Shown: piece after piece, positions 1 through 63,716 of the stretch
Layout: each line of letters opens with the position of its first letter
Position numbering within the stretch: position 1 is the stretch's first letter
NCBI GenBank assembly: GCA_963829055.1
Contig: CAWHHI010000006.1
Location: forward strand, 416,001-480,000
Source of the DNA: an uncultured Gemmatimonadaceae bacterium
GTDB lineage: Bacteria > Gemmatimonadota > Gemmatimonadetes > Gemmatimonadales > Gemmatimonadaceae
DNA: 64,000 nucleotides
Reading direction: 5' to 3'
Notes under the pieces: model-generated
What the model saw: the letters and a program-made list of their open reading frames with translations, nothing else
The model's database searches: none
What the model was told of the DNA's origin: nothing
Made by a program: the position numbers and the translations under genes

Positions 1-1401
1 GACTTCCAGCCGGTACGTCGTGTCGAGGCGGCCGATCGCCCACTTCCCGTTAGGCGTCTGCTGTACCGCGCGCATGTCCGGGTCGCCGAGTCGCGCGAAC
101 TTCTTCGTGGCGAGCGAGAAGGCGGCCGGGTACGTGAAGCGACGCTCCTGCGCGAGGCGCACGATCTGCACCGACTGCAGCTCGGCGTCCTTCCAGTGCC
201 ACACGTCGACGTTCGCCTGCGGCTCGTCGCTCTTCGGCGGCTCCGCTTCCTGCTCCTTGAGGCCGACGAAGACGCGCGAGCCGTCGTTGCTCCAGCGCGG
301 CGCGGCGAACTCGCTCAGGACCAGCGCCTTTGGGAATGTCGCGTCTTTCGACGGATCGTACTCGATCCGCTTGGCGTTAGGCGACGCCGGCGTCGCTCCA
401 GACGAGCAGCACGTTGTCCTTCTGCTTGTTCGTCTTCTCCTTGTCGCCGCGGAGCACGGCGAGCGACGAGCCCTTCTCGCTCCAGGCGAGCCCGTCGAAG
501 TCGAGCGCGGCGCTCGCCAGCGTGCGCGACTGCCCGTCGCGAGATCGATGACATAGACGCCGTTGCCGAGTCGGTCGGCGGCGTCGACGGTGTAGGCGAA
601 GCGCTGACCGGCGTCGTCGAACTCGAACGCATTCACGTTGCCGATGTTGCGCGTCGCCCCGGTGGAGAGCTCACGGAGAATCAGATCGGTGCCGTCGTGC
701 GTGGTGTCGGACGGCGTCGCCTTGTTCGTCCGCACGGCGAGCCAGCGCCCGCCGTCGGAGAACTGGAAGCTCGCCGGATTCGGCACGGTGAACTTCTCGC
801 CGCTCTTGAGATCGAGGAGCTCGAATCGTCGGGTCGCGGCAGTGCCGCGTTGGGCACCTTGAGCGCCCTGGGCACCCGGTGTCGTTGGGGCGTCTGGGGT
901 TGCGGGCGCGCCGCCGCGTCCGCCGGGACCACCTGGTGCACCTGCGCCTCCGGGACGACCACCTCGTCCGGCCGCGCGGCCAGGCGGATTCACATAGTAG
1001 CCGACCCAGCGCGAGTCATCGGAGAACACCGGGTTGTTGGCGCCGCCACCGCCAAAGCCGCCGCCTCCGCCGCCGGCCGCGGCCGGCGGTGCGCCCACGG
1101 GAATGGTGTAGACCTTCGAGCCATCGAGCTCCTTCACGTACAGCGTCCCGTCGCCGTCGTTCGGCTGGTACGCGTACGTCATCCACTTGCCGTCAGCCGA
1201 GATAGCGGTCTGCGTGATGCGATTCCAGCGACCGTAGTCGGCCAGGTTCAACACCTTTTTCGGGTCGCCGCGAGACGTGGCGGCGGAGCTCGGCGGCGTC
1301 GCCGATACCTGCGTGGCCGTCTGGGCGAATGCCTGGACGGCAGGGACAATGGCGAGCGCGAGCGCCAGCGTGAAGCGCTGGCGGCCGTGGGAGCGGCGCA
1401 T
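1..1401 (-). CDS. Secreted S9/prolyl-oligopeptidase-like protein, N-terminal beta-propeller part (runs off window start, frameshifted)
   Basis: Minus-strand ATG at 1401 gives MRRSHGRQRFTLALALAIVPAVQAFAQ (signal peptide), then LNLADYGRWNRITQTAISADGKWMTY and repeats such as FSDDSRWVGY and FSDGGRWLAV that are typical of S9 peptidase propellers. The catalytic domain is outside the window. Confidence 0.65.
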   Translation of the reverse strand, partial: MRRSHGRQRFTLALALAIVPAVQAFAQTATQVSATPPSSAATSRGDPKKVLNLADYGRWNRITQTAISADGKWMTYAYQPNDGDGTLYVKELDGSKVYTIPVGAPPAAAGGGGGGFGGGGANNPVFSDDSRWVGYYVNPPGRAAGRGGRPGGAGAPGGPGGRGGAPATPDAPTTPGAQGAQGAQRGTAATRRFELLDLKSGEKFTVPNPASFQFSDGGRWLAVRTNKATPSDTTHDGTDLILRELSTGATRNIGNVNAFEFDDAGQRFAYTVDAADRLGNGVYVIDLATGSRARWRAPRSTSTGSPGARRARRSPCSAATRRRRTSRRTTCCSSGATPASPNAKRIEYDPSKDATFPKALVLSEFAAPRWSNDGSRVFVGLKEQEAEPPKSDEPQANVDVWHWKDAELQSVQIVRLAQERRFTYPAAFSLATKKFARLGDPDMRAVQQTPNGKWAIGRLDTTYRLEV

Positions 1402-1629
1402 GGGATGTCTCCGTGGAACGATATCGGGGGCGGACGATTTCACCCGAGAATACGCGGCTGACCACCGGGACGTTCGACGCGTCGAACGCTCTGCGACGTC
1501 GGTGGCTGGCCTCGGCTGCGCCTAACAATCGTTTACCGCTCCGCTTCCGAACCCCGCGTCGAGCGCCTCTCGTGATGGCCGTGCCCGACGCTCGTCGACC
1601 TGCGCCGCCATGGAGGCGTTCACCGGAAG

Positions 1630-1700
1630 GAGAGGGCGGACGGCGGCTGGCCGGCCAAAAAAGCGTGTCATCCCGAGCATCCGGCGAGGGATCCGTGATG
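1630..1700. repeat. Partial REP-like element (class A, TGTCATCCCGAGC arm) with GGCGGAC-type flank
   Basis: GGCGGACGGCGG...AAAAAAGCGTGTCATCCCGAGC...GAGGGATC matches the left end of the element at 46940-47000. The right arm is degenerate. Confidence 0.55.
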
Positions 1701-2396
1701 AACATGTCGAGCGTGATCTCAGGGTCATCGTGAAGCCCGTCGCTCTTCGCGCCCGCGAGCCCGCGAGTCTCCATGTGCTTCGTCACGCCGGCATAGTCGT
1801 AGTACTCCTGCACGTGCGCGACGACCGGGTCGCCCTTCCAGATGCGCCGTCAGCGAGTCCGCGACGGCCGCGCTGCCCGTTCTGATTGCCGCCGCTGTCG
1901 CCGATAGGATGATGCTCTGAAGCCGTGCACCTTGAGGCTGTGCACGACGTCCGTGAGCACCGCGCGGAACGTTCCTCGCGGAGACTGATCGTTCCCCGAG
2001 TCGTCATGTGGCCGTCGGTCGGATCGATCGACCTTCCGGGACGTAGGCGATGTTGGTGCACAGGCGTGTTCCCCAGCGCACGCGCGATCGACTCGCAGTT
2101 CGTTCGCAGGACGTAGTTGTGCTTGCCGAGGCGAGCCACGTCCCGTTAGGCTCGAATCCGCCCGTGGCGATGGGCCGTCGTCTTGCCCTGCTGTTCAGGG
2201 CGTCGCGAACGTCCATCCACGTCATCTCCTCGAGCCACACGGTGTTGGCGCCGGCAGCGGGTTCGGCGCGTCGGCGCAGTTGTAGGGGTTCGCAGCACAC
2301 TGGCCACCGCCCATGTTCTGTCCGGGCGTAGCGTCTGGGACTTGGCCGGCGCAGCGGCGAGCAGGAATGCCGTGCAGAGATGAAGGCTCCCTTCAT
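1700..2396 (-). CDS. Creatininase-family protein (multiple frameshifts; 3' end approximate)
   Basis: Stitched frames read WLEEMTWMDVRDAL, ATGGFEPNG, GKHNYVLRTNCESIARALGN, AYVPEG, GTISLREE, IGDSGGNQ and SDGLHDDP. Confidence 0.75.
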
Positions 2397-2409
2397 GGCG
2401 ACCTCGGGC

Positions 2410-2960
2410 GTCTGAATGACGAGCCGGAATCGACGATCGTGACGCCCTCGCCTGGTAGGTCGCCATGAGGATCGCGCGGCCTAACGTGTGACCGAGCATT
2501 GTGAAGGAGACCGCCGCGGCGGACGTGTTGTCGTCAACGCCAAGCCGCTCGACGTCGAGCGCATGCACGACGAAGTAGTACCGGTGCGGCCGGTCGCCGC
2601 CGCGGGGCAGGGCCTCCGTACGCGTTGGCACCGTAGTCGTTCCGACAGTGGAAGGCTCCCTTCGGGAGGCTCGAGCCACCCTCCTGCTGCGTCGCCAGCA
2701 AGCGACGTGACGGACGCGGGCAGATCCACGACGATCCAGTGCCAGAACCCCGATGGCGTGGGCGCGTCAGGATCGAAGCACGTCACCACGAAGCTCTTCG
2801 TGCCAGCCGGGACATCGCTCCAGACAGCTCGGGAGAGCGATTCCCTGCCGCGTAGATGTGGGCCTGGTCGATCGGCGCCCCGCGTCGCACGTCTTTGCTC
2901 TCCACCGTGAACGACGGTACCCTGGGCGGAAATGGACCGTGGGCCTGAGCGGCGGTGCGT
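2410..2960 (-). CDS. YbhB/YbcL (PEBP/Raf kinase inhibitor-like) protein, frameshifted
   Basis: Motifs VPSFTVES, GNRSPEL, KSFVVTCFDPDAPTPSGFWHW and HRYYFVVHALDVERL are spread over three frames. Confidence 0.85.
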
Positions 2961-3227: not shown

Positions 3228-4235
3228 ATGGAACAGCGGTGGATCAGGCGTGGCGTCCGCGTGGGTTCAGTCGTACTGACGCTCCTCGCCACAACGACAA
3301 ATGGATTCGCGCAGAGCGCACCCGCGCGTCCCGCCGGCCGGCTGACGCCGGAAGAAGTCGCGGCGTTCGCGACGCTCTCGCTCTCGGTCGCGCAGGTGCG
3401 CGACTCGATCCAGAAGCAGTTGGCGCAGCCGCGCAACAAGACGCCGCAGGCGCAGCAGCAGCTCCGCGATCAGCTCGCGACGCAGGTGGCGTCGATTCTC
3501 CAACGCGCCGGTGTCTCGGAAGAGGAGTTCCACCGCAAGACGTACATCGTCAGCACGGACTCGGCCGCGCGTGTGGTGTTCGACTCGACGATGTCGAAGC
3601 TCACCGGCGCGCCGCTGCCCGGCCAACTGGCAGCGAGCGCCCCCGTCGTCGCGGTGCCGGCGGGTCCGATCGGCACGCACATCGGCGCACGTGATGAATG
3701 CGTTCACGGACACACCGAAGGGGATGGGGCTCCTGCCGACGGCGATGGAGGAGGCGCGCGTCGCGTCCGTTCACGCTGGGCTTGCTGCGCGCGATCCCGA
3801 GAACCTCGGCGCGATGAAGCTGCACGCCGGTCACGTGATCAACGCGGTGGACCCGAGCGTCGTGACGTCGGGCCCCGGTCTGGGCTACGGCGTCAAGCGT
3901 GCGGCGTTAGGCGTGGCGGCGCACATCGACCTGGCGGCGAAGGTCCCGGGGGCGTCCGCGAACGTCACCACGCATGCGAACCACGTCGGGACCTCGGCGC
4001 GAAACACGGTTCAGCGTGCCGATGCGATCGTGGCGCTGGCGCAGCGGATTCAGGCGTCGACGTCGGCGTCCGATGCGGCGGCGCTCGTGAGCCAGCTCGT
4101 GTCACTCACGAACGAGCTCGTGCTGGGCAAGGATGCGGACGCCGACGGCAAGGTGACGTGGAAGGAAGGCGAGGGCGGCCTGCAGCAGTGCGACGAGCAC
4201 GTGCGGCTGCTGCTCGCTGGCGAGGCGCACTACGG
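3228..4235 (+). CDS. Secreted hypothetical protein (frameshift near 3690; 3' end runs into a repeat)
   Basis: Signal peptide MEQRWIRRG...LLATTTNGFAQS, a helical Gln-rich domain, then a His-rich domain (HVMNAFTDTP...HAGHVINAVDP...HVRLL). Confidence 0.6.
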
Positions 4236-4236
4236 C

Positions 4237-4496: not shown

Positions 4497-4515
4497 GCTG
4501 CGCTCGGCGACGACG

Positions 4516-6696: not shown

Positions 6697-6735
6697 GAGT
6701 GATCCTCGAATGTCGTGTCATCAGCCGGTCTCCAT

Positions 6736-8146
6736 TCAGACCGACAGCGTGAACTCGCCCGTGCTGTCGCCGAAGCTCTCGCACGTCGTTGCAGCCCGAA
6801 CTGGTGCGCCAGCGTCAGCATCACGTTCGCCATCGGCGTCGCGTCAGGCGCCTTGAGATGCATGTTGCCCGGCAGCCGGCCATTCCCGTGGCCGAGCAGC
6901 AGCAGCGGGCAGCGGCGATGGTTGTGAATGTTGCCATCCGCCATCGGCGAGCCGTACATGATCACCGTCTTCTCGAGCAGGTTGCTGTCGCCTTCCTTCG
7001 TGTTCTTGAGCTTCTCGAGGAAGTACGGCAGCATGCTGACGTGGTAGCGGTTGATCTTGTTGAAATCGAGGATCGCCGACTCGCGACCGCCGTGGTGCGA
7101 CGCCGGGTGGAAGCGCCTTGTCGGTGCCGCTCTCCGGGATACGCGCGCGTCGACGCGTCGCGGCCCGTCTTGAACGAGAACACGCGCGTCATGTCCGACT
7201 CGAACGCGAGCACCTGGATGTCGAACATGAGCTTCATGTGCTCGGCGAACGAGTCCGGCACGCCTAACGGCGCTTCGGGCAGCTCGCGCTGCTCGCCGCT
7301 CGCGTTCCGCGCTTCGACCGCCTGGATGCGGCGCTCGAGCTCGCGAATGTCCGACGAGGTACTTGTCGATCGCGCTGGCGATCCGTCGGGCCGAGCTCGC
7401 GCTTGAGCCCAGCGAGGTCGCCGACGATCCAGTCGAGAATGCTCTGGTTCGCCTTGCGCCGCACGGCGCGGTCGCGTGTTGTTGCTGCCGGCGCCGAACA
7501 GCAGGTCGAACGCGATGCGCGGGTTGCGAATCATCGGCAGCGGATCCGTCGGGCTCGCCCAGCTCAGCGTGTCGGTGTACGCGCAGGCGTAGTTGTAGTC
7601 GCAGCCGCCGCCGCGATCCTGGTTCTCGATGCACAGCTGCATCGACGGGATCGCGGTGTCCTCGGCCGATCTTGCGCGCGACGATCTGGTCGAGCGACGT
7701 GCCGACGTACACGTCGGAGCCCTGCGTCTGCTTCGGGTGCGACTGCGTGAGGAACACGGCGCTCGACCGGAAGTGGTCGCCGCCGATCTCCGGCGCCTCG
7801 AACGCCTCGGCCATGCGCACGTCGGTGTTGCTGACGATCGTCAGATACTTCGCGCCACGGCTCGAGCGGGGCGAGCGCGCCTTCGGGATTGAGCTCGAAG
7901 TTGCGGCCGATCTCCGCCGGCGCCCACAGGTGCTTCGACGCGCCCCACGTATTGCGAGCCGGCGCACCCGTGCACGAGCTCCATGCACACGAGCCGCGTC
8001 TTGTCGGCGGCCGCCGACGCGCCACCGACCTTCGCGAGCGAGCGGAACGCCGGCTCCATCGCGTCGAGGTAGGGCAGTGCGACCATGGCACCCAGTCCGC
8101 GAAGGAACGTGCGGCGCTCCATCGCCTTTCCGGCCAGGATCTGCAT
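6736..8146 (-). CDS. DUF1552-domain protein (Tat-like N-terminus; frameshifted)
   Basis: MERRTFLRGLGAMVALPYLDAM, GGDHFRSSAVFLT, CDYNYACAYTDTLSW, DMTRVFSF, HPASHH and YGSPMADGNIHNH. Confidence 0.85.
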
Positions 8147-8176: not shown

Positions 8177-10719
8177 CTAACGCTGCGAGCGATTGTCGTC
8201 CGCGGCCACCGGCTGCTCGGCCGTGCGCATGCGGAACGCCGCTGCTGTTCACGACGCCCATGACGAACGACGAGAACCTGTAGCCGCTCTCCGGCCTCGC
8301 TGCGCGATCGCGCGGACGGTCGGCTGATCTTCATCGGCGACGCGGCGGCCTAACGCGTACGCCATCAGGTTCTCGGTGAAATGACGGACGAACGGCGTCG
8401 GACGCTTGAGCAGCGCGCGCGTGAGCTCGGACGGCGTGGACACCGGCGTGCCGTCGTACAGCTCGCCCCGCGTGTCGAGCGGCATCGCGTTCTCGCGATA
8501 GCGCCACCGGCCGGTCACGTCGAAGTTGTCGAGCGCGAGGCCGATCGGGTCCATGTACTGATGGCACGTGCGGCACGTGATGTTCTTGCGGTGCAGCTCC
8601 ATGCGCTCGCGCGTCGTGAGCGGCTTGCCGTCCTTGCCGTCCGTCGTCTCGTCGAGCGACGGGACGTTAGGCGGCGGCGGTGGCGGCGGCATGCCGATGA
8701 CCACCTCCATCACCCACTTGCCGCGCAGCACCGGCGACGTGCGATTCGCGAGCGACGTCTGCACCAGCATGCTGCCCTGGCCGAGGATGCCGCGGCGCGT
8801 GCTGTCGGGGTACGTCACGCGGCGGAACTGCGTCGCCGGAGACGTTCTGAAGCCGTAGTGCCGAGCCAGGCGCTCGTTCACGAACGTGTAGTTCGCCGTG
8901 AGCAGCGTCAGGATGCTGCGGTCGTGCTTGACGATGTCGCCGAAGAACAGCTCCGTCTCCTTCTGCATCGCGTCGCCCGAGCTGCTCGTCGTAGTCCGGG
9001 AACCAGAACGACGTCCGGACGCACCTTCTCGATGTCCTGCAGGCGCAGCCACTGGCCGGCGAAGCGCGTCGCGAGCGCGTCGGCGCGCGGGTCGGCGAGC
9101 ATGCGCTTCACTTCGCGCCTCGAGCGTCACCGGCGTGGACAGCGTGCCTGCCGCGGCGAGCTTCAGCAGGCGATCGTCGGGGATGCTGCTCCAGAGGAAG
9201 AACGAGAGGCGCGACGCGAGCTCGTAGTCGCTGATCTTGTAGTCCGTGCCTGGCGTCGACGTTCGCGGGCGTCGTCTCGAAGCGGAACACGAAGTACGGG
9301 CTCGCCAGCATCGCCTGCAGCGCCGAGCGAATGCCTTCCTCGAAGCCGCCCGACTGCGCGCCGCGCTTGTAGAACGACATGAGGCCCTCCATGTCGTGCG
9401 GCGTCAGCGCTCGGCGATACGCTCTCGTGCCCAGACGGGTCAGGATCTGCTGCCGCGCACGCGGTGTCGGCGACCGTGGTCGACGGACGGCACGAGAAGA
9501 TGATGCGGCGGCTCGGCGTTTCGGAAACGCCGACCGCGTTCTGCGGGCCGACGATGCCGAGATCCATGATGTGCGGCGGCATCGTCGTGCCGGAGCTCGC
9601 CGTGCCGCCCGACGCCAGCGACCAGTCGTGCGGCTTGATGAGATCCTCGTACGGACCGTCGCCGCGCCTGACGAACGCGACCGACACGCGGTGCGGGCCG
9701 GCCGTGACCTTGAGCGGCTCGGTGCTGATAGAGGTCGACGCCGAGCGGGAGGTCCTGCGACGGCGAACGATTTGTTCACGCCGCGCTCGTACTGCAGCGA
9801 GCGCCACGCGCTCGCCGTCGATCGAGACGTCGATGTCCTCGAGCTGCGTGCCGATGCCGCCGGCGACGTTGAAGCGAAGCTCGTAGAGCCCGTCGGCGAC
9901 GAACGTGTGCTGCGCGACGATGCCGCCGCGCGTGCCGTACGGCGCGCCGTCGACGTGGTCCCACGGGTGCTGCGAGATGTACGGCGACACGCGGTACGTC
10001 GTCATCGACAGCGGCGCGTTCTTGTCGCCGACGGCCATGAGGCTCACCGTCGCGGCGGCGTTGAGGTACGCCTCGAGCAGCGTGGGCGACAGCAGCTGGG
10101 CGTCGGCGATGTTGTCGAAGTTCGCGCTCTTGGTGTCGAGCGGCAGGTAGTCCGCCGCGTTCACGTCGACGCCTAACAAGTCGCGAATCGCGTTCTCGTA
10201 CTCGGGGCGGTTGAGACGCTGGAACGTGCGCGGACCCGGCGTTCGGTGGCGACGCCTTGTCGATCACGCGCTCGATCGCCGTTCGCGAGCATCTGCAGCG
10301 TGTCGCTCGGCGGCCGCGGACGCGCCGGCCAGCGGCATCATCTCGGCGCGCAGCTTCCGGATCATCTTCTCCGACTTCAGGCGCGCGGTGTCCGCCTGGG
10401 CGATGTCGAAGCCTTCCAGCGACAGGTTGCCGAGCTGGAGGTCGTTGCTGTGGCAGTCGATGCAGTACGCGTCGATGACGTCGTTGAGCGTCGTCGAACG
10501 GAGCGATCGCGTGGACGAGGCGACGCGTCGTACGTGATTCACCCGGCGCGCACGCGGCGCAGGGCGTTCGTCGTCGGCGCCGACGATTCCGAGCGCGGCT
10601 GTACGGCCAGGCGATGGCGCGGCGGAGGCGCCCGTCGGGGGGCCGTCTCACCCATGCTCATGCCGACTTTGAACGACAGTGCTACCGTCAGTACGCGACG
10701 CCGCGAGGACACTCTTCAT
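8177..10719 (-). CDS. DUF1587/1595/1592/1588/1585 multidomain protein with c-type heme motifs (frameshifted)
   Basis: YCIDCH, KLRAEMMP, FDNIADAQ, ALQAMLASPYFVFR, RFAGQWLRL, RTSPVLRGKWV and CRTCHQYMDPIGLALDNFD. ATG at 10719 follows GGAGGGGG. Confidence 0.85.
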
Positions 10720-12171: not shown

Positions 12172-12193
12172 CCTCTCACGTTAGGCACCGCGC

Positions 12194-12711: not shown

Positions 12712-13326
12712 TTATTCGCCCGATCGCCTGAGCGGGCCGATACGTCGCCCGGCGGCCGAGTCGGCGATGAGCGTCTCGAGCCTGCGCTCGCGTGTTGCCT
12801 CCTGCTTCGCGCTCACCACCCAGAACGTCGCCGTGCGCCGGTAGTAGGGCGCCTGCGACTCGAAGAACGCCCACGCCTTCGCGTTGGCGCGGAACCGCTG
12901 CTCGAACTCGTCGCCTAACGTGACGGCCGTTCGCTGCTCGAACGAGTAGACGCCGGACTTCTCCGGCACCCGTGCCTCGAACGCGGCGAGCCCGGACGGC
13001 TGCATCCGGCCTTCCTTCGTCAGTGCCGCGACGCGCGCGATATTCACCGCGCTCCAGTTGCTCCCCTTCTTCCGCGGCGTAAACCGGTTCTTGTAGCGCG
13101 TCTCGTCGATCGACTTCCTGATGCCGTCGATCCAGCCGTAACAGAGCGCCTCGTCTACTGCCTCAGGCCACGTGATGCTCGGCGTGCCCGAGCCCTTCTT
13201 GTGCATGCCGACCCAAACCTCGCTGGCGCGCGCGTGGTTCTTCTCGAGCCACTGGCGCCACTTGGCCGGCGTGGCGAAGAACAGCACGTCGTCTACATTC
13301 GTCGCGCTCTTCGTGTTCGGTGCCAT
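12712..13326 (-). CDS. YdeI/OmdA-associated (bacteriocin-protection) protein
   Basis: WRQWLEKNH, EAVDEALCYGWIDG, FTPRKKGSNWSAVN and WVVSAKQEATRERRL. Confidence 0.9.
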   Translation of the reverse strand: MAPNTKSATNVDDVLFFATPAKWRQWLEKNHARASEVWVGMHKKGSGTPSITWPEAVDEALCYGWIDGIRKSIDETRYKNRFTPRKKGSNWSAVNIARVAALTKEGRMQPSGLAAFEARVPEKSGVYSFEQRTAVTLGDEFEQRFRANAKAWAFFESQAPYYRRTATFWVVSAKQEATRERRLETLIADSAAGRRIGPLRRSGE

Positions 13327-16028: not shown

Positions 16029-16703
16029 CTAGTCGTGATCCTTCGCGCCGCCGGCCACCGGCGAGCCATCCGCCCACTTCGGGACCTTCACGATCATCTC
16101 CGCCTGCGGCGTCCCAGGCGACCCCACCGAGATCGGTTCACCCGCTCCGTCCTGAGTGAGCCCGAACTTCGCCGGCGTCGCGCCCGGCACGTAGAACATG
16201 AGATGCGGATGCCACGCCCCGACGCGCCGTCCGTCGGCGTCCGGCGACGAGAACAGCACCTGGCGCGGGGACATCATGTACGCCAGCGCCAGCTCACGAG
16301 GCGCCGTCAGCTCACCGCGTGCGTACGCCGAGCTCACTGCCCGGTCCACCGAGTCCTCGCTCACGCCTAACGAGCGGAGCCGCACCTGCATCAGCTCGCG
16401 GTGCATCACCGTGCGCGTGCCTTCGGCGTTGAAGCAGATCGGATACAGCCCGCCCTCGTGGAGGTCGCGGGCCACCAGGCACGCGACGCCGTTCGATCCC
16501 TTACGAAGGGTGAGCACGTTCCCGTCACGGACCGCGTACACGGTCGCCTTGTCCGTAACCTCCGGTGGCGCCGCCGAGACCGCGAGCGCGATCTCGCTGG
16601 AATCGGGAAGGGGGACTGGCTTGAACGGATACCTGCTCCCGCCGGACTGCGCGGAAGCCGAAGCGGTAGCGACGAGAAACAGCAACACGGCATGGCGGCG
16701 CAT
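16029..16703 (-). CDS. Secreted hypothetical protein
   Basis: Signal peptide MRRHAVLLFLVATASASAQ, and the conserved-looking motifs ALAVSAAP, GSNGVACLV, PICFN, LAYMMS and WHPHLMFYVP. Confidence 0.75.
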   Translation of the reverse strand: MRRHAVLLFLVATASASAQSGGSRYPFKPVPLPDSSEIALAVSAAPPEVTDKATVYAVRDGNVLTLRKGSNGVACLVARDLHEGGLYPICFNAEGTRTVMHRELMQVRLRSLGVSEDSVDRAVSSAYARGELTAPRELALAYMMSPRQVLFSSPDADGRRVGAWHPHLMFYVPGATPAKFGLTQDGAGEPISVGSPGTPQAEMIVKVPKWADGSPVAGGAKDHD

Positions 16704-51684: not shown

Positions 51685-53274
51685 ATGCCAATGACTCGTC
51701 GCGTACCGACGCCGGTGCTCACGCTGCTCCCCTTGCTCATCACACTCGCGCCTGCCAACCCGTTGCTCGCGCAGCGGGCGCCGCTCGCGAACCGCATCCA
51801 GCGCGTGATGGATCGTCCCGAGTTCGCGCATGCGATGTGGGGCATGCAGTTCGTCTCGCTCGACTCCGGCGGTCGCGTCGTCTACGCGCTCAACGAGAAC
51901 AAGCTGTTCACGCCCGGCTCGACCACGAAGCTCGTCACGGAAGGCACGGCCATGGGCGTCCTCGGTGCCGATCACCGTTTCACGACGCGCGTCTACCGGA
52001 CAGGTCCGGTGCGCGCCGGTGTCCTCGAGGGTGATCTCGTCCTGCTCGCGAGCGGCGATCCGAATCTCTCGGCGCGGCTCAAGCCGGATGGAACGCTCGC
52101 GTTCGAGAACGAGGACCACTCCTACGATGCGGATCCGAACACGCGGGCCGTTCCCGGCGACCCGCTTCAGGTGCTTCGCTCGCTCGCAAAGCAGGTTCGC
52201 GAGCACGGGCATCACCCGCGTGAGCGGTTCGGTGATCGTCGACGCGTCGCTCTTTGCCGAGGGTGAGCGCGAGTTAGGCACCGGCGTCGTGATCTCGCCG
52301 ATCGTCGTGAACGACAATCTCGTAGACGTCACCATCGGTCCGGCGGCAAACGGTGAGGGCGCGGCGTCGCTCGCGGTGTCGCCGAAGACGAGCTACGTCC
52401 GCTTCATCAATCAGGTGAAGACCGCGCCTGCCGGCACGCGCCCGTCCATTCGCTGGTCCTCCGATTCACTGCTCCCTGACGGCAGCCACATCGTCGTCGC
52501 GAGTGGCGTGTTTCCGAAGGGCACCGCACCGATCCTCTACAGCTATGCGGTCCCGCAGCCCAGTCGTTTCGCCGAGGTGACGCTGGCCGAGGTGCTGCGT
52601 GATGCGGGCGTGGCGGCGCAACCGCGGCGGTACGCAACGAAGCCTGCGTTCGTGCGGCTCCGGTCATCGTACGGACCGGCCAACACGATTGCGGAACACC
52701 AGTCGGCGACGTTCGGCAACGAGGTGCGGGTCACGCTCAAGGTGAGCCAGAACCTGCACGCGAGCATGACTCCGTTTCTCCTCGGCGCCCTGCGCGGAAA
52801 GGACAGCAGTACGACCGGCTTTGACGTCGAGCGCGATTTCCTCACGTCGCTCGGCCTCGACCTCTCGGGTGCGCAGCAGGCGGACGGCGCGGGAGGCGAC
52901 GCGCACTACACGCCGACGTTCATGACGAGCTATCTCAGCGGCGATGGCGAAGCGGCCGGACATGCCGACATTCCTCGCGGCGCTCCCGATCCTCGGACGC
53001 GACGGTACGCTGTTCGACATCCAGGACAGAATCGCCGGCTGCCGGGCACGTGTTCGCGAAGACCGGCACGTTCGCGGTGGACGACCCGCTCAACCGTCGT
53101 CTGCTGGTCACGGGGAAAGGGCTCGCCGGCTATATGACGACGGCGCAGGGCGAGCGGCTCGCGTTCGCGATCTACGTGAACAACGTGTCGGTGTCCACGG
53201 CGCCTGACGAGGTCAAGCGCGTGGTTGGCCAGGCGCTGGGTGAGATCGCGGCCCTCGCGTACGAGGGGCGTTAG
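51685..53274 (+). CDS. dacB: D-alanyl-D-alanine carboxypeptidase/endopeptidase (peptidase S13, PBP4-like; frameshifted)
   Basis: PGSTTK (SxxK), ASGDPNL, SQN and AKTGT. Confidence 0.88.
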
Positions 53275-53282
53275 GCGCGACG

Positions 53283-53413: not shown

Positions 53414-55740
53414 TCGCCGCGGCACTCGCTCTCGCCGTCGCTATGCCCGCGCAACGTGCGCGCCCGTGTGTGCCGCGGGCGACGATCCTAACGCGAGCGT
53501 CGTTCTCAATTGCATGACGCTGGTGCCCGTCCCCGACTGTCCCGGACGGCGGCGGGCATCGTGCATCTGCGTCCCGTCCCCACGCCATTTGGCGTGGCCG
53601 TACACGCCGACGGGCGCCCTCGCTATCGACTGGTCGCCACCTTCGACGGATTGCCGGCTCCAGCCTCCCTCGGCGACTACAGCGTCTACGTCGCGTGGGT
53701 CTATACGGTGTCGCTGGACAGCGTGCGTGAAGCTCGGCCCGGTGCGGAACGGCGTCGTGGATCTGGGCGAGCTGTCCTATCCACAATTCCGGATTCTCGT
53801 GAGTGCGGAGCGGTCCGCGGACGTGCGCGAGCGCGGGCGGCAAGCTCGATTCTCCGCGGAACATCGCCCGAGCGCTCGGCTCCTGGCGCATCGTGACGTG
53901 GTGCAGCCGTCGGCGCCCGGTGCCCTCCGCGACGCCGGCCCCCCGCGCGACACCGGCATGGCGTCCATGCACGATGCGCCTAACGCTGGTCACGGTTCAT
54001 GGCCGATGCCGCCCATGCCTGCCAACATGCCGAGCGTCAGCATGATGGGCATGACCGACTTGGTGCCGCGCGTCGGTCCGTTCCTTCCTGGCGCCGGGGT
54101 CGATCCGGCAGTCCATTCCGCTCTCGCGGCCACGTGAGGTCGTCCGACTCTCCGACGGTGACACGCTTCGACTCGAGTCGGGCCTCGTCCGCCGCACGAT
54201 CGGCGGGAAGACGGTCGTGATGTACGGTTTCAACGGCCAACATCCCGGGCCGCTCATCGATGTGCGCGAAGGGTGCGACGCATCGTCGTTCGCTTCCGCA
54301 ACGGCATCGAGCAGCCGAGTGCGGTGCACTGGCACGGCGTGCGGCTCGACAATCGGTTCGATGGAGTTCGTCGGCGTCACGCAGGACGCTGTGCCCCCGG
54401 GCGGGACGTTCACGTACGTCGTGCGCTTTCCGGACGCCGGCATCTACTGGTATCACCCGCACGTGCGTGAGGACATCGCAGCAGGACCTCGGTCTTTACG
54501 GCAACATGCTCGTGCGTCCGGCGTCATCCGGATATTTCGCGCCGGTGAACCGCGAGCAGGTGCTGATGCTCGACGACCTGCTGGTGGGGGACGATGGCCT
54601 AACGCCGCACGGGGCGGAGTCGCCGACGCACGCGTTGATGGGGCGATTCGGCAACGTCATGCTCGTGAATGGCGAGCCGCGCTACGATCTCGTCCGTGCG
54701 GCGTGGTGAGATCGTGCGATTTTATCTGACGAACGCGTCGAACGCGCGGTTGTTCAACGTGTCGTTCGCTGGCGCGCGGATGAAGGTCGTCGCCAGCGAC
54801 GTCGGGCAAGTTCGAGCGCGAGGCGATGGGTGTCGAGCGTGGTGATCGCGCCGGCGGAGCGATACGTCATCGACGTCGAGTTCGCGCGCGCCGGGCGGGT
54901 GGCGCTGGTGAATCGCGTGCAGGCGCTCGATCACATGTTCGGACGTCTACTCGCCGGAGACGGATACGCTCGGCGTCGTGCAGGTCGGCGATGCGCCCGG
55001 CGGCGCCTCGTTACGCGGCGCAGTTCGCCGAGCTGCGTCGCAACGCCGATGTCGCGGCGGAGATCGCGCCGTTCCGTCGGCTGTTCGACGCGCCACCCGA
55101 CGCACTCGCTCGTGCTCACGATGCGCACGCAGGGTCTGCCGGCGGTCGTGTCGAACATGCTCATCGGCGATCAACGCGCCGGTCGAGTGGAACGACGGCA
55201 TGGCGATGATGAACTGGGTCGCGACGGCGAAGGAAGTGAGCTGGGTGCTTCGCGATCCGGACACGCGGCAAGGAGAACATGGACGATCGACTGGCGCTTC
55301 CGAGTCGGGCGACGTGGTGAAGCTCCGGGTGTTCAACGATCCGGCGTCGAGTCACGCGATGGATCACCCACTTCACCTGCACGGCCAGCGCTTTCTCGTG
55401 GTGAGTCGCGACGGCGTTCGGACGACGAATCTCGTATGGAAGGACACGGCGATCATCCCGGCGGGTGAGACGGTAGACCTGTTGGTCGACATGGCGAACC
55501 CAGGGCGCTGGATGATACACTGCCACATCGCCGAGCATCTCGGGGCGGGGATGATGGGCGTGTTCAGTGTCGATCCCGGTGAGCACAGACAGGACAACGG
55601 AAACTGCAGGACAGGACAACAGCAACGGCAACTGCAAGACAGGACGACAGACTGCAACAGCAGGACAGGATGGCCAGGATTGGCAGGATTGAAGAAGATG
55701 ACACGCCTCGGCGTCCGGGAGCGCGTCGCCGGGGCCTAAC
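53409..55740 (+). CDS. Multicopper oxidase (laccase/CueO-like; many frameshifts; ends approximate)
   Basis: All four Cu motifs are present: HWHG, WYHPH, HPLHLHG and HCHIAEHLGAGMM. A Met-rich segment is also present. Confidence 0.88.
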
Positions 55741-55895
55741 GAATGAAGGAACATGATGCGACACGGAGCCTCTGTTCAATCCTGTCCATCCTGCCAATCC
55801 TGTCATGCAGTTGCCGTTGCAGTTGCCGTCACCGGCCTCGCGTGTTGGGCAGCCGTCATCCTGCCAATGCTGGCCATCCTGTCTTGCAGTTCTGG
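55585..55895. repeat. Imperfect inverted repeat region built from CAGGAT/CAGGAC and GCAACT/GCAACG units
   Basis: Left ...GACAGGATGGCCAGGATTGGCAGGATTGAA versus right TTCAATCCTGTCCATCCTGCCAATCCTGTC and ATCCTGCCAATGCTGGCCATCCTGTCTTGCAGTT. Confidence 0.75.
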
Positions 55896-55937: not shown

Positions 55938-57347
55938 ATGCTTCGAATGATTCGTGCTGTCGCAATAGGGCTACTGCTCGCTGGGCCGTTAGGCGCACAG
56001 GCGCGTGAGCTCGCCGCGCCGCTCAAGCCATACGTGACCGTGAACGATCCTGTCGTCGCGCTCACGAACGTGCGCGTCATCGACGGCACGGGCGCGCCCG
56101 TGAAGGAGGGGCAGACGATCGTCATTCGCGGCGAGAAGATCGCGGCCGTCGGGCCGGCGAGCTCGGTGACCGTGCCGGCTGGCGCGCGAACGATCGATCT
56201 CTCCGGGAAGACCGTGATCCCCGGGATCATCGGGCTGCACGACCACATGTACTACGGCGGCATGAAGTTCATGGGCGTGAGCTACCCGCGTCTCTTCCTC
56301 TCCGCCGGCGTGACGACCATCCGCACGACTGGCAGCGTCGACGCGTACCAGGAGCTCAACCTCAAGCGCCTCAGCGACTCGCTGCAGATCGTCGCGCCGA
56401 CGATCGTCGTGACCGGACCGTACCTGCAGGGCGCGGGTTCAGGCTTCGTCACGATGCCGGCGCTCTCCGGCCCGGAGAGCGCGCGCCGCATGGTGCGCTA
56501 CTGGGCCGAGGAAGGTGTCACGTGGTTCAAGGCGTACACGCAGATCTCGCGCGCGGAGCTCGGCGCCGCGATCGACGAGGCGCACAAGCACGGCGTGAAG
56601 GTCACGGCGCATCTGTGCTCCGTCGGCTTCCGCGAAGCCGTTGCGTTAGGCATCGACGCGCTCGAGCACGGGATGCTCACGAACACGGAATGGTATTCGG
56701 GCAAGAAGCCGGACCAGTGTCCGCAGGCGTCCACGGGCGACATGTACGGCGCGCTCGACATCAACAGCCCCGAGGTGCAGCGCACGATCCAGGAGATGGT
56801 GAAGAAGAAGGTGGCGATGACGTCGACGCTGGACGTGTTCGAGCTGTCGAGCCCGAGCCGAGTGCCGGTCGATCAGCGCGTGCTGGACGCGCTGTATCCG
56901 GACATGTCGAAGTCGGTGGCCAAGTACTACGAGGGCGGGAAGACGGCGAACGATTCAGTCGAGCGGGCGGCGTTCAAGAAGTCGATGGAATTCGAGCGCG
57001 CATTCGTGAAGGCCGGCGGTTTGTTAGGCGCCGGCTCCGACCCGTGCTGCCTCAGCTCCATCGCTGGCTATGGCGATCAGCGTAACTACGAGCTGCTCAT
57101 CGAGGCCGGCTTCACGCCGGAGCAGGCGGTGCAGATCATGACGTCGAACGGCGCGAAGATCCTCGGCTTCGACAAGACGGTCGGTACGATCGCACCGGGC
57201 ATGCAGGCGGATCTCGTGGTCATCGCGGGGAATCCGGTGCAGACCCCGGCCGACATTCGCAACGTCGAGACGGTGTTCCGCCGCGGCCTCGGCTACGACT
57301 CGGCGAAGCTCAAGGAGTCGATCAAGGGGCTCGTCGGGCTGCGCTGA
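55938..57347 (+). CDS. Secreted amidohydrolase-family protein
   Basis: PGIIGLHDH, GVTTIRT, FKAY, TAHL, LEHG, AGSD and GTIAPGMQADLVV. Confidence 0.92.
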   Translation: MLRMIRAVAIGLLLAGPLGAQARELAAPLKPYVTVNDPVVALTNVRVIDGTGAPVKEGQTIVIRGEKIAAVGPASSVTVPAGARTIDLSGKTVIPGIIGLHDHMYYGGMKFMGVSYPRLFLSAGVTTIRTTGSVDAYQELNLKRLSDSLQIVAPTIVVTGPYLQGAGSGFVTMPALSGPESARRMVRYWAEEGVTWFKAYTQISRAELGAAIDEAHKHGVKVTAHLCSVGFREAVALGIDALEHGMLTNTEWYSGKKPDQCPQASTGDMYGALDINSPEVQRTIQEMVKKKVAMTSTLDVFELSSPSRVPVDQRVLDALYPDMSKSVAKYYEGGKTANDSVERAAFKKSMEFERAFVKAGGLLGAGSDPCCLSSIAGYGDQRNYELLIEAGFTPEQAVQIMTSNGAKILGFDKTVGTIAPGMQADLVVIAGNPVQTPADIRNVETVFRRGLGYDSAKLKESIKGLVGLR

Positions 57348-58862: not shown

Positions 58863-58885
58863 CCCGAGCCTAACGTGGGAATGCC

Positions 58886-58922: not shown

Positions 58923-58956
58923 CGAATTGGCCCTGGCGGGCGCAGCGTCCTGCCCG

Positions 58957-59601
58957 ATGAACGTCACCACGCTCTCGCCCGATAACGTCGTGGAGGTCGT
59001 GTCGGTGCTCACCGACGCGTTCCATGACTACCCGGTGATGCGCTTCGTGCTCGGCCCAGACGCAGCCGGTGTCGGCGCGCCGTACAACGTGCGCCTGCAC
59101 CGGCTGCTGCAGCTGTTCGTGAGCGCTCGCTCGTACCGCAACGAGCCGATGCTCGGAGTGCGCGACAGCGCAGGCGCGCTCATCGCCGCGGCGGTGATGT
59201 CGCTGCCCGACGCCCAGGACCCACCGCCAACGTTCATCGCGCTTCGCGAATCGATCTGGGCGGAGCTCGGCGCGGAGGCCCGCGCGCGTTACGACTCCTA
59301 CGTACTATCGGCCCGGTTCTTCGAGCAGACGCCGCGGCACCACCACCTCAACATGATCGGCGTGCGACGGTCGCAGCAGCGGAGCGGCCTCGCGCGCGTG
59401 CTGCTCGGCGCGGTGCACGATCTCGCGAGCCGAGATCCGGGCTCGGCCGGCGTGAGCCTAACGACAGAGCGGCCGGAGAACGTCGTGCTGTACGAGCACT
59501 TCGGTTACCACGTCGTCGGTCATGCGCGGGTCTCTTCGACGGAGGAGACGTGGGGGATGTTCCGACCGCGCGACGGAACCGCAGCCTCGTCGACATCGTA
59601 A
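58957..59601 (+). CDS. GNAT N-acetyltransferase
   Basis: LTDAFHDYP, HLNMIGVRRSQQRSGLARVLL and NVVLYEHFGY. Confidence 0.85.
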   Translation: MNVTTLSPDNVVEVVSVLTDAFHDYPVMRFVLGPDAAGVGAPYNVRLHRLLQLFVSARSYRNEPMLGVRDSAGALIAAAVMSLPDAQDPPPTFIALRESIWAELGAEARARYDSYVLSARFFEQTPRHHHLNMIGVRRSQQRSGLARVLLGAVHDLASRDPGSAGVSLTTERPENVVLYEHFGYHVVGHARVSSTEETWGMFRPRDGTAASSTS

Positions 59602-61596: not shown

Positions 61597-62655
61597 ATGC
61601 ACATCGGTCGCGTCCGCCTAACGAACCAGCACATCGCCCGCCCGGTGCTCGACGATCCCGCCGCAGTCGTCGGGTGGTTCGGCGCCGTGCAGGCTCAGGA
61701 CTACCTCGGCGGACTGTGGGCGGTGGGCCTGCGGACGCGAGGCGCGACGGAGGCGAGCGTGGAGGAGGCCATCGCGCGCGGCGAATTCGTGCGCACGTGG
61801 CCCATGCGCGGGACGCTCCATTTCGTCGCGGCGGCGGACGTCCGCTGGATGCTGTCGCTGCTCGCGCCACGTGCTCGTACGGCGGCGTCCGCGCGGTGGC
61901 GACAGCTCGAGCTCGATCACGCGGTCATGGCGCGTAGTGCGAAGGTGGCCGAGAAGGCGCTCGTGGGCGGGAAGCGCGTGCGGCGTGATGCGTTGTACGC
62001 ACTATGGAACAAGGCCGGGATCGCCACGCACGACTCGCGTGGACTGCATATCCTCGGGCACCTGGCGCAGACGGGCCTCATCTGCTTCGGCCCGCGCGAC
62101 GGGAAGCAGCAGACGTTCACGCTCGTCGAGGAGTGGCTTCCGGCCGCGCGATCGCTCGAGCGCGACGTCGCGTTAGGTGAGCTCGCGCGTCGGTACTTCA
62201 CGAGCCACGGGCCGGCCACGGTGCACGACTTCGCGTGGTGGTCCGGCCTCACGGTCACGGATGCGCGTGCTGGCCTCGACGGAGTGAAATCGTCGTTCGA
62301 GAGTGAGATCGTCGATGGACGGACGTTCTGGTTCTCCTCAGCGACGGCGAGCGCGTCGACGGCCGCATACCTGCTCCCGGCGTGGGATGAGTTCACGGTG
62401 GCCTATCGGGACCGCAGCGACGTTCTCGATCCGCGTTTCACGGTCAAGGTGAACGCCGGCGGTGGCGTGCTGAAGCCGGTCATCGTTCTCGGCGGTGCCG
62501 TTGTCGGCACGTGGCAGCGGACCGTCGGGAAGGGGAAGGTAGTCGTTAGGCCGATCCTGTTCGAGCCGCTCTCGCCGGCAAGCACGGGCGCGCTGGAAGC
62601 CGCGACGCGCAAATACGGTCGGTTTCTGGGCGCCGCCGGCGAGGTCGCTGGATAA
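61597..62655 (+). CDS. AlkZ/YcaQ-like (HTH_42) DNA glycosylase family protein
   Basis: AVQAQD (QxQ), RTWPMRGTLH, HGPATVHDFAWWSG and LLPAWDEF. Confidence 0.9.
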   Translation: MHIGRVRLTNQHIARPVLDDPAAVVGWFGAVQAQDYLGGLWAVGLRTRGATEASVEEAIARGEFVRTWPMRGTLHFVAAADVRWMLSLLAPRARTAASARWRQLELDHAVMARSAKVAEKALVGGKRVRRDALYALWNKAGIATHDSRGLHILGHLAQTGLICFGPRDGKQQTFTLVEEWLPAARSLERDVALGELARRYFTSHGPATVHDFAWWSGLTVTDARAGLDGVKSSFESEIVDGRTFWFSSATASASTAAYLLPAWDEFTVAYRDRSDVLDPRFTVKVNAGGGVLKPVIVLGGAVVGTWQRTVGKGKVVVRPILFEPLSPASTGALEAATRKYGRFLGAAGEVAG

Positions 62656-62691
62656 TGAGGAAATCCGACCACGCCGACTGCTTCGACACGA

Positions 62692-62938
62692 CATCCAGAA
62701 CCCAGGGTGTGAACGGAAACGACCGGAAACAACTGGAACGGCCGGATCCCAGCGCGACCCGGACAGACCGTGGAACGGGGCCGTTGAAGGAGGGGAACGG
62801 CCTCGTGAGGCCGATGCGTCGCGAGGCCATCCCGCTTTCCATCACGGCTCGTTGCGGGCACCGACTCTCCCCGCATCAGGCCGATCCGCCTGATCCGATG
62901 TTTCCGGCTGTTTCCGTTCACACGCTCTGTTCTGGATG
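62692..62938. repeat. MITE-like element with 40-bp imperfect terminal inverted repeats
   Basis: 62692-62731 versus the reverse complement of 62899-62938 match at 35 of 40 positions. Confidence 0.8.
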
Positions 62939-63041
62939 CTTGCTGAAGCCGTCCTCAGCGTCGATGTGCGGAATCTGCGTTCACGGTTGGATATCGAACC
63001 ACGCTATCTGATTTCGGGGGGCGGCCTGCTACTTTGTTCGT

Positions 63042-63716
63042 GTGAAGCCCCATGAACGCCTGGCCGAAGCGACGGCTCCCGATGGTACGCGCCTGACGCT
63101 GATCCGGCACGACGGCGCGTATCTCCTGCGTGCGAACGGTGCCGAGCTCATGTCCACTCGGCGATCGCATTCCGAGGTGGAACTGGCCGACGTCGCCTGT
63201 TCGCGCATCGCCGACCGCGGCGGCGCGCACGTGCTGATCGGCGGCCTGGGACTCGGCTTCACGCTCCGCGCCGCGCTACGGGTGCTCGGGCCGGACGCGC
63301 GGGTGACGGTCGCCGAGATCGTGCAGGCGGTGATCGACTGGAATCGCAACGCCGACTGGGGGCTGAGCGTCGACGCGTTAGGCGACCCACGCGTGACGGT
63401 GCGTCACGCGGACGTGCTGGACGTCCTGCGTGGCAGTGTCGCGGCGTTCGACGCGATCATGCTCGACGTGGACAATGGCGCCGAGGCGATGGTGACGGCG
63501 AAGAACAGCGCGCTGTACCGCGAGACGGGCATCCGCGCGGCGGTTGCCGCGTTGCGTCCAGGTGGGGTGCTCGCCTACTGGTCGGCCGTTGCGGATCCGC
63601 CGTTCGTGAAGGCGCTCAAAGGGTTCGGCCTAACGGTGACGACGCAGCGGAGTCGAGCGCATGGGTCGACCGGGCCCTACCATGAGATCATCGTCGCGAG
63701 GTTGTCGCGGGACTAG
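63042..63716 (+). CDS. Spermidine-synthase-like SAM-dependent methyltransferase
   Basis: NGAELMSTR, VLIGGLGLGFTL, FDAIMLDVDNG and LRPGGVLAYWS. Confidence 0.88.
   Translation: MKPHERLAEATAPDGTRLTLIRHDGAYLLRANGAELMSTRRSHSEVELADVACSRIADRGGAHVLIGGLGLGFTLRAALRVLGPDARVTVAEIVQAVIDWNRNADWGLSVDALGDPRVTVRHADVLDVLRGSVAAFDAIMLDVDNGAEAMVTAKNSALYRETGIRAAVAALRPGGVLAYWSAVADPPFVKALKGFGLTVTTQRSRAHGSTGPYHEIIVARLSRD

Follow-up and report, generated by a model that had tools for sequence, protein, structure and literature searches.

A hyper-abundant non-palindromic 8-mer in a Gemmatimonadaceae genome: a candidate self word that shares its spelling with an integron attC core

The stretch of DNA analysed here (the window, 64,000 nucleotides; G000:C6:416001-480000) was taken from assembly G000 of an uncultured Gemmatimonadaceae bacterium and carries, among others, genes for a TonB-receptor-like protein, a beta-lactamase-family protein, an NDH-2-like protein, a Ser/Thr kinase, an S13 peptidase, an amidohydrolase and an AlkZ-like glycosylase. 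Written into most of these genes and into the DNA around them is the 8-mer CGTTAGGC, the exact copies of which, on either strand, are called the word below; its core is GTTAGG. The source assembly comprises 7.78 Mb on 20 contigs at 66-67% GC (window: 65-70%) and is 86% complete, and gene absences given for it are provisional. The word was found 51 times in the window (27 copies on the plus and 24 on the minus strand; Table 1), as compared with a mean of 0.94 and a maximum of 5 in dinucleotide-preserving shuffles, none of 100 of which reached 51; the core was found 65 times (6.2 expected). An earlier note, made by a model from the letters of the window (the original prediction), had listed 27 and 24 coordinates, had added about 14 sites with a changed flank and had judged the number to be far above chance. 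All 51 coordinates proved to be exact matches, 14 is the difference between cores and exact words, and the shuffles bore out the excess. The codons read at 3905 (GCG-TTA-GGC, Ala-Leu-Gly) and 61616 (CGC-CTA-ACG, Arg-Leu-Thr) were correct. The site at 2144, read as Glu-Pro-Asn codons, is an exact word at a position outside the conservative gene calls used here. Of two sites described as intergenic, 12179 does lie outside called genes, and 58868 is uncertain, being located 28 nt inside the start of a predicted open reading frame (ORF).

Throughout the source assembly 5004 words were counted (2547 on the plus and 2457 on the minus strand), approximately one per 1.56 kb, with copies on every contig. 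Expected numbers were obtained from Markov models of order 1-3, since a model of maximal order conceals the word, the sub-words of which are enriched too. CGTTAGGC was the most enriched 8-mer of the assembly (5004 copies versus 102 expected with the order-2 and 258 with the order-3 model). Information outside the eight positions amounted to at most 0.13 bit per position; the sites are therefore occupied by a bare word that is not part of a repeat element. A dispersed repeat of the repetitive extragenic palindrome (REP) or miniature inverted-repeat transposable element (MITE) type was ruled out by the lack of a conserved flank beyond the 8-mer and by the location of most sites in genes. A base-calling artefact was likewise excluded: the word is abundant in dozens of independent assemblies, orthologous positions are conserved, and foreign blocks of the same assembly lack it. 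The word is thus real, strong and organism-specific. As a separate observation, several 10-mers were also enriched in G000, namely TCGGAATGAC/GTCATTCCGA (719 copies versus 23 expected), AGTCCCCAGT (212 versus 2.6) and ATTCCCGATT (240 versus 4.8), which are probably parts of one dispersed repeat element or of several.

Three blocks of the assembly, all located at contig ends and outside the window, are devoid even of the core: C6:6854-55038 (48 kb, 70% GC), C11:7377-44055 (37 kb) and C6:591809-623330 (31 kb, 73% GC). Housekeeping genes (several in split form) were found in them in place of phage genes, by which prophages were ruled out. The FtsK, DAHP synthase and M17 peptidase genes of the first block and the FolD gene of the second have second copies on contig C16 (47-58% identity). 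Given these divergent second copies, the two blocks are probably DNA of another organism that was joined in (chimeric joins or contamination), and they serve as an internal negative control for the word.

For the analysis of coding context, genes were called after long ORFs had been used to train a codon model, which gave a conservative set of 6515 genes covering 75% of the genome; all coding masks were thus our own ORF-based masks and not curated annotation. Synonymous-codon shuffling (n=20), in which every protein and the codon usage of each gene were kept, reduced the 3181 words in called genes to 154±11, so that the excess persisted in the codon-aware shuffle which the original prediction had proposed as a check. 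The predicted use of different frames and rare codons was also observed. All four stop-free frames were occupied: xCG-TTA-GGC (1247 words), xxG-CCT-AAC-G (894), xGC-CTA-ACG (584) and xxC-GTT-AGG-C (456). TTA accounts for 1.7% of the leucine codons; of its occurrences in called genes, 44% fall inside the word. Where the protein sequence would permit the word, it was often spelled out, namely at 22% of the [APTS]-Leu-Gly, 20% of the [RGSC]-Leu-Thr, 45% of the x-Pro-Asn-[AGVDE] and 10% of the x-Val-Arg-[LPHQR] positions. Stop codons were found within the word as well (173 of 1727 TAG and 207 of 825 TAA stops). With a lenient mask (83% of the genome), the density was one word per 1730 bp in coding DNA versus one per 1046 bp elsewhere.

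An effect on the proteome was determined in three sets (G000, further word-rich samples, and word-poor relatives pooled together) as the ratio of each word-encodable tripeptide to its reversed tripeptide. For PN[AGVDE] the ratio was 1.76 in G000 and 1.76 in the other word-rich samples versus 0.79 in the word-poor ones; the corresponding values were 1.26, 1.24 and 1.05 for [APTS]LG, 1.11, 1.12 and 0.91 for VR[LPHQR], and 1.07, 1.34 and 1.04 for [RGSC]LT. The PN/NP dipeptide ratio exceeded 1.1 in three of three word-rich samples and was below 1.0 in six of six word-poor or weak samples. The word thus inflates the peptides that it encodes. A roughly two-fold enrichment of tripeptides is reported for the uptake signal sequence (USS) and the DNA uptake sequence (DUS) (PMC2817400).

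The distribution of the word among relatives was examined at two levels. Among 30 relatives, the six congeners carry 2501-5112 sites each, G014 (of another genus) carries 6360 in 5.1 Mb, G010 carries 605, and most others carry 6-60. The identical 8-mer was found 148 times in 136 kb of G014 (3.3 expected) and, weakly, 14 times in 120 kb of G010 (1.1 expected); no hyper-abundant word of any spelling was detected in 100-120 kb each of G008, G017, G018, G026 and G029 or in 20 kb of G030. The second level was a family panel of 201 genomes (at least 80% complete, word-rich being defined as at least 400 sites, counted from the table); the tallies include three genomes flagged as unpublished (G013, G249, G295), all of them word-poor, and no conclusion rests on these. 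Word-rich genomes numbered 63 of 201, in 25 of 68 genera, and the range extended from absence to one word per 780 bp (maximum 7821 sites in 6.1 Mb, in G391). Within genera the counts differed widely: 66 (G316) versus 3244-4141 (G353, 4141) in g52, 895 versus 4469 in g43, 173-1991 in g22, and 1100-7821 in g65. The word is accordingly a graded and patchy trait in the family, differing 60-fold within genus g52. One-strand runs of 70 kb in genus g51 were recognised as an artefact and dropped. In the phylum to which G031 belongs (Verrucomicrobiae), 201 genomes were sampled, a sample by which a narrow clade could be missed; none was word-rich, and the highest count there (104 sites in 3.1 Mb) was below its own reversed-word control.

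Conservation was measured in alignable DNA, in which the congeners are 76-83% identical. The sites of G000 were kept in aligned blocks of G005 in 22 of 38 cases, of G001 in 19 of 31, of G004 in 23 of 62 and of G014 in 4 of 21. Pooled, 68 of 152 words (45%) were conserved, as compared with 24 of 147 copies (16%) of CGCTCGGC, by which the same class of peptides is spelled in preferred codons, and with 9-30% for all 8-mers in the same alignments. At sites that are not shared, the orthologue mostly showed a common-codon spelling (CGCTCGGC, CGTTCGGC, CGTCAGGC or CGTTAGGT) that differs by 1-4 substitutions and by no insertions or deletions. From these common-codon orthologues and the raised conservation it follows that sites are made by point substitution and are then maintained, which is the outcome of the ortholog alignment that the original prediction had suggested. 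Gains often require two substitutions, transversions included (CTC to TTA).

The predicted absence of strand bias was found as well: relative to local GC skew, 50.7-51.9% of the words lie on the G-rich strand, a value that is not significant. Spacing, in turn, was far from a Poisson distribution. Neighbour gaps of 0-50 bp numbered 28 (160 expected), those of 50-100 bp 41 (155 expected) and those of 100-200 bp 144 (295 expected); short gaps thus stood at 0.17-0.49 of expectation, gaps of 0.5-1.5 kb at 1.26-1.28 and gaps of 3-10 kb at 0.80-0.86. When pairs were compared by orientation with a null in which every site was jittered by ±3 kb, pairs closer than 100 bp were deficient in every arrangement (same-strand 0.29 and 0.26; +/- 0.09 and 0.29; -/+ 0.12 and 0.27), and the repulsion faded to approximately 1 by 300-400 bp regardless of orientation. 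A process that writes the word site by site cannot therefore account for the spacing, on the grounds of its short-range repulsion, nor can a reader acting on one strand only, since the repulsion is equal across orientations. The spacing fits a double-strand reader that is satisfied by one site per few hundred bases.

These results bear on the possibility that the word is a product of biased mutation or repair (for example, a correction of near-variants like that by very short patch repair) and has no function of its own. Such a process would operate inside the cell and would mark phage DNA too, and several one-mismatch neighbours of the word do look depleted against simple nulls: with the codon-aware null, the variants at positions 2 and 7 and the change of G6 to A appeared to be 3-12 fold depleted. 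Other one-mismatch variants were raised, namely T at position 1 (435 copies), T or G at position 8 (827 and 428), T4 to C (1763) and G6 to T (583); the enrichment profile is one of Y at positions 1 and 8 around the GTTAGG core. The depletion was unspecific, however, as all 8-mers of the form xxTTAGxx at 2-4 mismatches stood at 0.18-0.20 of the codon-aware null and those at one mismatch at 0.31; near-variant depletion was consequently rejected as a sign of directed conversion and ascribed to a general effect of TTAG context. Biased repair is further opposed by the spacing, which should be Poisson for a site-by-site process, close pairs being 3-10 times too rare, and by the frequent need for two substitutions per gain; Xu et al. 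2018 argue likewise for the cyanobacterial word HIP1 (highly iterated palindrome 1). Taken together, this origin is regarded as quite improbable. Independently of the word, 8-mers of G000 called genes that contain TTAG and are unrelated to it occurred at approximately 0.2 of the synonymous-shuffle expectation; TTAG/CTAA is strongly and generally avoided in the genes of G000 beyond what codon usage explains.

Phages were searched for in a viral collection by two scans. The first required two same-strand words 300-330 bp apart and returned at least 120 stretches; among the 80 loci at which flanks were examined, most were chance pairs, a dozen or so were attC arrays, and two were real phages with dispersed words. 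One of the latter (L185; terminase, portal, head protein, holin and repressor genes) belongs to record G418, a provirus fragment with 26 words in 25.5 kb (12/14 on the two strands). The other (L181) is a myovirus, complete at 57.8 kb with terminal repeats (record G417; L279-L281; IMGVR_UViG_3300036846_000250), and carries 18 words in two reading phases together with 13 copies of TTGTTAGGC (reversed control word: 12); a separate 10-mer, TGATAAGCTT, is also present in it 14 times. A related provirus (terminase 38% identical) has no word in 41.6 kb. The second scan, for inverted pairs, yielded 37 loci from the entire collection, of which two are clearly word-rich: L309 (15 words in 7.1 kb, 8/7) and L292 (8 in 4.6 kb, 4/4), with approximately 2 words per kb, are fragments of one phage lineage that encodes virion proteins and an endolysin. 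A prophage of G000 itself was not found by matches to HK97 capsid or portal families or to relatives of the two word-bearing phages. For Pasteurellaceae, host USS are reported to accumulate in temperate phages but not in large, probably lytic ones (PMC6776037), and words in proviruses therefore fit the model of an uptake tag.

Phage carriage would also be compatible with a Chi-like signal, at which an end-processing helicase-nuclease stops degrading and starts recombining, and which thereby marks self DNA. Chi is a strand-skewed site that is read by RecBCD or AddAB. Like it, the word is a non-palindromic 8-mer, and Chi can be carried by phages; the words of the complete phage G417, 17 of 18 of which are on one strand in two phases, along with the 13 copies of TTGTTAGGC, would suit an end-directed reader. 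The chromosome differs from that expectation in showing no skew and in the equally strong repulsion of opposite and like orientations, and neither RecC (TIGR01450) nor AddB (TIGR02786) was found in the 86% complete G000. An enrichment of 20-50 fold through rare codons also lies far above that of known Chi sites. The absence of skew likewise disfavours KOPS, another strand-skewed system. A role of the Chi kind is held to be very improbable.

A different connection emerged from the word-poor relatives, in which runs of same-strand words at a spacing of approximately 550 bp turned out to be integron cassette arrays. Each unit of an array ends in an attC site of approximately 100 nt, which begins with GCCTAACA, continues as an imperfect inverted repeat and closes with CGTTAGGC. 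When attC sites were located by their inner repeat, independently of the word, the end was exactly CGTTAGGC in 34 of 41 and CGTTAGAC in 5 of 41, and the opposite end was GCCTAACA in 18 of 23. Cassette arrays of the viral collection, with many attC types and 30-64% GC, share this ending, but in their case the word itself had been the search target. The cassette boundary has been published as GTTRRRY, attC being described as an imperfect inverted repeat of 57-141 bp that extends from RYYYAAC to GTTRRRY and is recombined as a folded single strand (PMC3053210). The word thus agrees with the attC R' core of the clade at all eight positions, including the preceding C, and an agreement in spelling of this length is unlikely to be due to chance. 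Large chromosomal arrays were noted in word-poor relatives at L048 (G021:C95:1-20000, with 23 attC-like units in 20 kb), L051 (G021:C80), L049 (G019:C3) and L050 (G029:C1), with cassettes of approximately 0.4-1.3 kb. A different arrangement was seen in L205 (IMGVR_UViG_3300045995_000451), a very AT-rich viral contig (29.8% GC), where tandem units of approximately 108 bp each end in the word, unlike either the attC arrays or the dispersed pattern.

On the strength of this identity, the dispersed words might be targets or products of an integron integrase (secondary insertion sites, scars or decoys). In G000, however, they showed no partner peak at attC distances, no inner repeat or flank consensus, and no array beside the IntI-like gene of the assembly; dispersed words as attC sites were ruled out, since only the spelling of the core agrees and the words stand alone in ordinary genes, not at one end of an inverted repeat. 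The rise of sites by substitution in conserved genes, with no insertions or deletions, is equally at odds with insertion. The IntI-like gene of G000 (C20:208041-208958, minus strand) scored 265.7 bits, just at the family cut-off, versus 400-450 in relatives; its nearest relatives are those of G325, G003 and G316 (56-57% identity), of which G325 and G316 are word-poor. IntI (TIGR02249) was above the cut-off in 18 of 31 relatives, not including the word-rich G002 and G004, and the copy of G014 is in three frame-shifted pieces. On the panel, an IntI-like gene (E ≤ 1e-40) was present in 41 of the 63 genomes rich in the word, in 73 of the 138 poor in it and in one of five of the densest genus, g9. 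IntI was rejected as the reader of the word, given that its presence is uncorrelated with the word, and an integrase origin of the dispersed copies is considered highly improbable.

In most of the respects open to in silico testing, the word behaves as a self word of the USS or DUS type. Like the USS of Pasteurellaceae and the DUS of Neisseriaceae, it is a short non-palindromic word in thousands of copies that occurs in both orientations, is spaced over-evenly, is denser outside genes, uses several frames, enriches the peptides that it encodes and is missing from foreign DNA (PMC2817400), and it is found in temperate phages. With the candidates of the original prediction in mind (uptake, a nucleoid-protein or methyltransferase site, biased repair), uptake fits most of these properties, biased repair is disfavoured, and double-strand binding or methylation is retained as an alternative. 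Our tentative reading, to which a probability of roughly 0.45 is given, is that the word is a DNA-uptake or kin tag maintained by recombination-coupled drive; we infer both that its reader acts in uptake and that transformation occurs in these organisms. CGTTAGGC would then be a double-strand self word of the DUS or USS kind, and probably of the HIP1 kind too. Some DNA-handling machine would prefer word-bearing DNA, most likely in the binding of outside DNA before its import through a type IV pilus and ComEC. Alleles with a newly gained word would arise by point mutation and would then pass to kin by recombination more often than alleles without one; this drive, perhaps together with selection, would, in opposition to codon preference, place a word in approximately every 1.5 kb of genes, spacers and resident prophages. 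As one word per few hundred bases would suffice, close neighbours would not build up.

Several results weigh against this reading. Close inverted pairs at 8-50 bp, which as terminator dyads are enriched between genes for USS and DUS, are depleted here (3 and 4 versus approximately 32 expected each). The commonest frame, xCG-TTA-GGC, relies on the rarest leucine codon, in contrast to the preferred-codon frames of USS and DUS. Among the relatives sampled one word is present or absent, no dialects having been seen; the trait is patchy and graded within one family, and the phylum is another. The pattern of 17 of 18 words on one, coding, strand of G417 is not predicted by a plain uptake tag, and the identity with the attC core is not accounted for by it. 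As to machinery, G000 has three PilT-family ATPases above the cut-off as well as ComEC; a PilT gene occurs in 200 of the 201 genomes of the panel and ComEC in all 31 relatives searched, word-rich and word-poor alike, and the uptake machinery therefore does not explain which genomes have the word. ComEA (TIGR00426) was not found in G000 at its 86% completeness. ComP is the receptor in Neisseria; the ComP_DUS profile gave no match and no receptor was found, but the control genomes were silent too. Of six prepilin-like ORFs in G000, one (C16:947580) was profiled on the panel; its full-length orthologues were confined to G001 and G002, and it does not track the word. Literature searches returned no report of natural transformation in this phylum. 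They also returned no description of such a word in the phylum; the literature on over-represented octamers led to papers on HIP1 but to none on this word, and a full-text search for CGTTAGGC yielded primers and oligos only, in agreement with the remark of the original prediction that it knew of none.

A cis-acting site on double-stranded DNA, bound by a nucleoid-organising protein or modified by a self-marking methyltransferase and selected directly with no role in uptake, would explain much of the same evidence: the spacing is regular irrespective of orientation, conservation of the sites exceeds that of the controls, and in phage structural genes the density of the word equals or surpasses that in the host. 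The nearest 8-mer analogue, HIP1, is reported to be methylated and was first read as a signal of chromosome structure (PMC5861425, PMC13756078). Large word-less foreign blocks are tolerated by the chromosome, however, and a 60-fold variation within one genus (66 sites versus 4141 in g52) would be odd for a core architectural function. We also know of no such protein for any 8-mer at this copy number. A site of this type is accordingly considered unlikely.

HIP1 (GCGATCGC) of cyanobacteria deserves comparison in its own right. It is described as a hyper-abundant 8-mer, 15-300 fold over-represented and conserved between genomes, which has been argued to be kept by selection and not by biased repair and for which a signalling role in transformation or uptake was recently suggested (PMC5861425, PMC13756078, bioRxiv 10.1101/2024.09.10.611283). 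The word resembles it in abundance, in conservation and in the preference for selection over biased repair. HIP1 is, by contrast, palindromic and methylated by known enzymes, and the periodicity given for it is 10-90 kb, whereas a short-range repulsion over approximately 300 bp was measured here for the non-palindromic CGTTAGGC.

The coincidence with the cassette boundary can be joined to the tag reading in an extended form, according to which an uptake or kin tag took its spelling from the integron attC R' core and has remained matched to it. Long chromosomal cassette arrays in the clade would already have made CGTTAGGC the commonest 8-mer; a DNA receptor with a preference for it would import kin DNA together with cassette arrays, and drive could then spread the word over the genome. 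If true, this would couple natural transformation to the acquisition of integron cassettes and would account for cases, if any, in which unrelated lineages rich in integrons came to carry this word independently. This extension is rather unlikely.

How hyper-abundant self words arise is an old question. To our knowledge, such words are known only from two bacterial families and from cyanobacterial HIP1, and the same kind of word is now found in a little-studied, largely uncultured soil family. As the trait is graded, genomes of the family lend themselves to a search for the reader by phyletic profiling, and the identity with the cassette boundary points to a connection between the integron gene pool and DNA uptake that can be put to the test. 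In work with soil metagenomes, the word could be used as a marker in binning, in the recognition of foreign or chimeric DNA and in matching phages with their hosts; should it prove to be an uptake tag, it might also assist in rendering these bacteria transformable.

Table 1. Copies of the word in the window, with strand, codons of the gene in which they lie (peptide in brackets) and state in aligned relatives.
Position	Strand	Context
48..55	+	minus-strand gene, ACG CCT AAC GGG (T-P-N-G)
375..382	+	minus-strand gene, TCG CCT AAC GCC (S-P-N-A)
2144..2151	+	outside called genes
2479..2486	-	outside called genes
3905..3912	+	GCG TTA GGC GTG (A-L-G-V)
7262..7269	-	outside called genes
8348..8355	-	GCG TTA GGC CGC (A-L-G-R)
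8665..8672	+	CCG CCT AAC GTC (P-P-N-V)
12179..12186	+	outside called genes
12913..12920	-	ACG TTA GGC GAC (T-L-G-D)
14727..14734	+	TGC CTA ACG ACG (C-L-T-T)
15664..15671	-	outside called genes
16365..16372	-	TCG TTA GGC GTG (S-L-G-V)
17574..17581	-	outside called genes
17756..17763	+	GCG TTA GGC GGC (A-L-G-G)
18263..18270	-	ACG TTA GGC ATG (T-L-G-M)
18539..18546	+	GGC CTA ACG CCG (G-L-T-P)
20400..20407	-	GCG TTA GGC AGG (A-L-G-R)
21469..21476	-	TonB-receptor-like gene, TGC CTA ACG TTT (C-L-T-F)
24266..24273	-	GTG CCT AAC GAC (V-P-N-D)
25166..25173	+	ACG TTA GGC ACC (T-L-G-T)
27319..27326	-	beta-lactamase-family gene, ACG CCT AAC GCG (T-P-N-A); kept in G001, not G003
28197..28204	+	CGC CTA ACG CGG (R-L-T-R)
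28655..28662	+	AGC GTT AGG CAC (S-V-R-H)
30513..30520	-	NDH-2-like gene, GTG CCT AAC GCT (V-P-N-A)
30821..30828	-	NDH-2-like gene, CGC CTA ACG GGA (R-L-T-G)
31417..31424	+	outside called genes; CGCTCGGC in G004, CACTTGGC in G003
32385..32392	+	GCG TTA GGC ACG (A-L-G-T); CGCTCGGC in G004
32853..32860	+	GCG TTA GGC GGG (A-L-G-G)
34963..34970	+	AGC CTA ACG ATG (S-L-T-M)
36137..36144	+	GCG CCT AAC GCA (A-P-N-A); kept in G005
40072..40079	-	outside called genes; GCCGAAC- or GCCAAAC-type spellings in 4 congeners
41411..41418	+	kept in 4/4 aligned congeners (G001, G002, G004, G005)
42594..42601	+	kept in 5/5 aligned congeners
43035..43042	+	overlaps end of called gene; kept in 3/5 congeners, CGTTAGGT in 2
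44670..44677	-	kept in G001 and G005, not G003 or G004
47614..47621	+	Ser/Thr kinase gene, CGC CTA ACG ACG (R-L-T-T)
48492..48499	+	kinase gene, GCG CCT AAC GTC (A-P-N-V)
48925..48932	-	kinase gene, TCG TTA GGC GTC (S-L-G-V)
53269..53276	+	called ORF 53050-53274 stops at TAG 53272-53274
53978..53985	-	outside called genes
54597..54604	-	outside called genes
55734..55741	-	outside called genes
55987..55994	+	amidohydrolase gene, CCG TTA GGC GCA (P-L-G-A)
56644..56651	+	amidohydrolase gene, GCG TTA GGC ATC (A-L-G-I)
58868..58875	-	28 nt inside predicted ORF 58840-59601 (AGC CTA ACG TGG); possibly upstream of true start
59456..59463	-	AGC CTA ACG ACA (S-L-T-T)
61616..61623	-	AlkZ-like glycosylase gene, CGC CTA ACG AAC (R-L-T-N)
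62544..62551	+	AlkZ-like gene, GTC GTT AGG CCG (V-V-R-P)
63376..63383	+	GCG TTA GGC GAC (A-L-G-D)
63628..63635	-	GGC CTA ACG GTG (G-L-T-V)

At 53269, where a stop codon had been proposed to lie inside the word, the TAG does terminate a called ORF. This ORF overlaps, in another frame, the S13 peptidase ORF 51830-53137, and the arrangement may represent a frameshift or a mis-called start.

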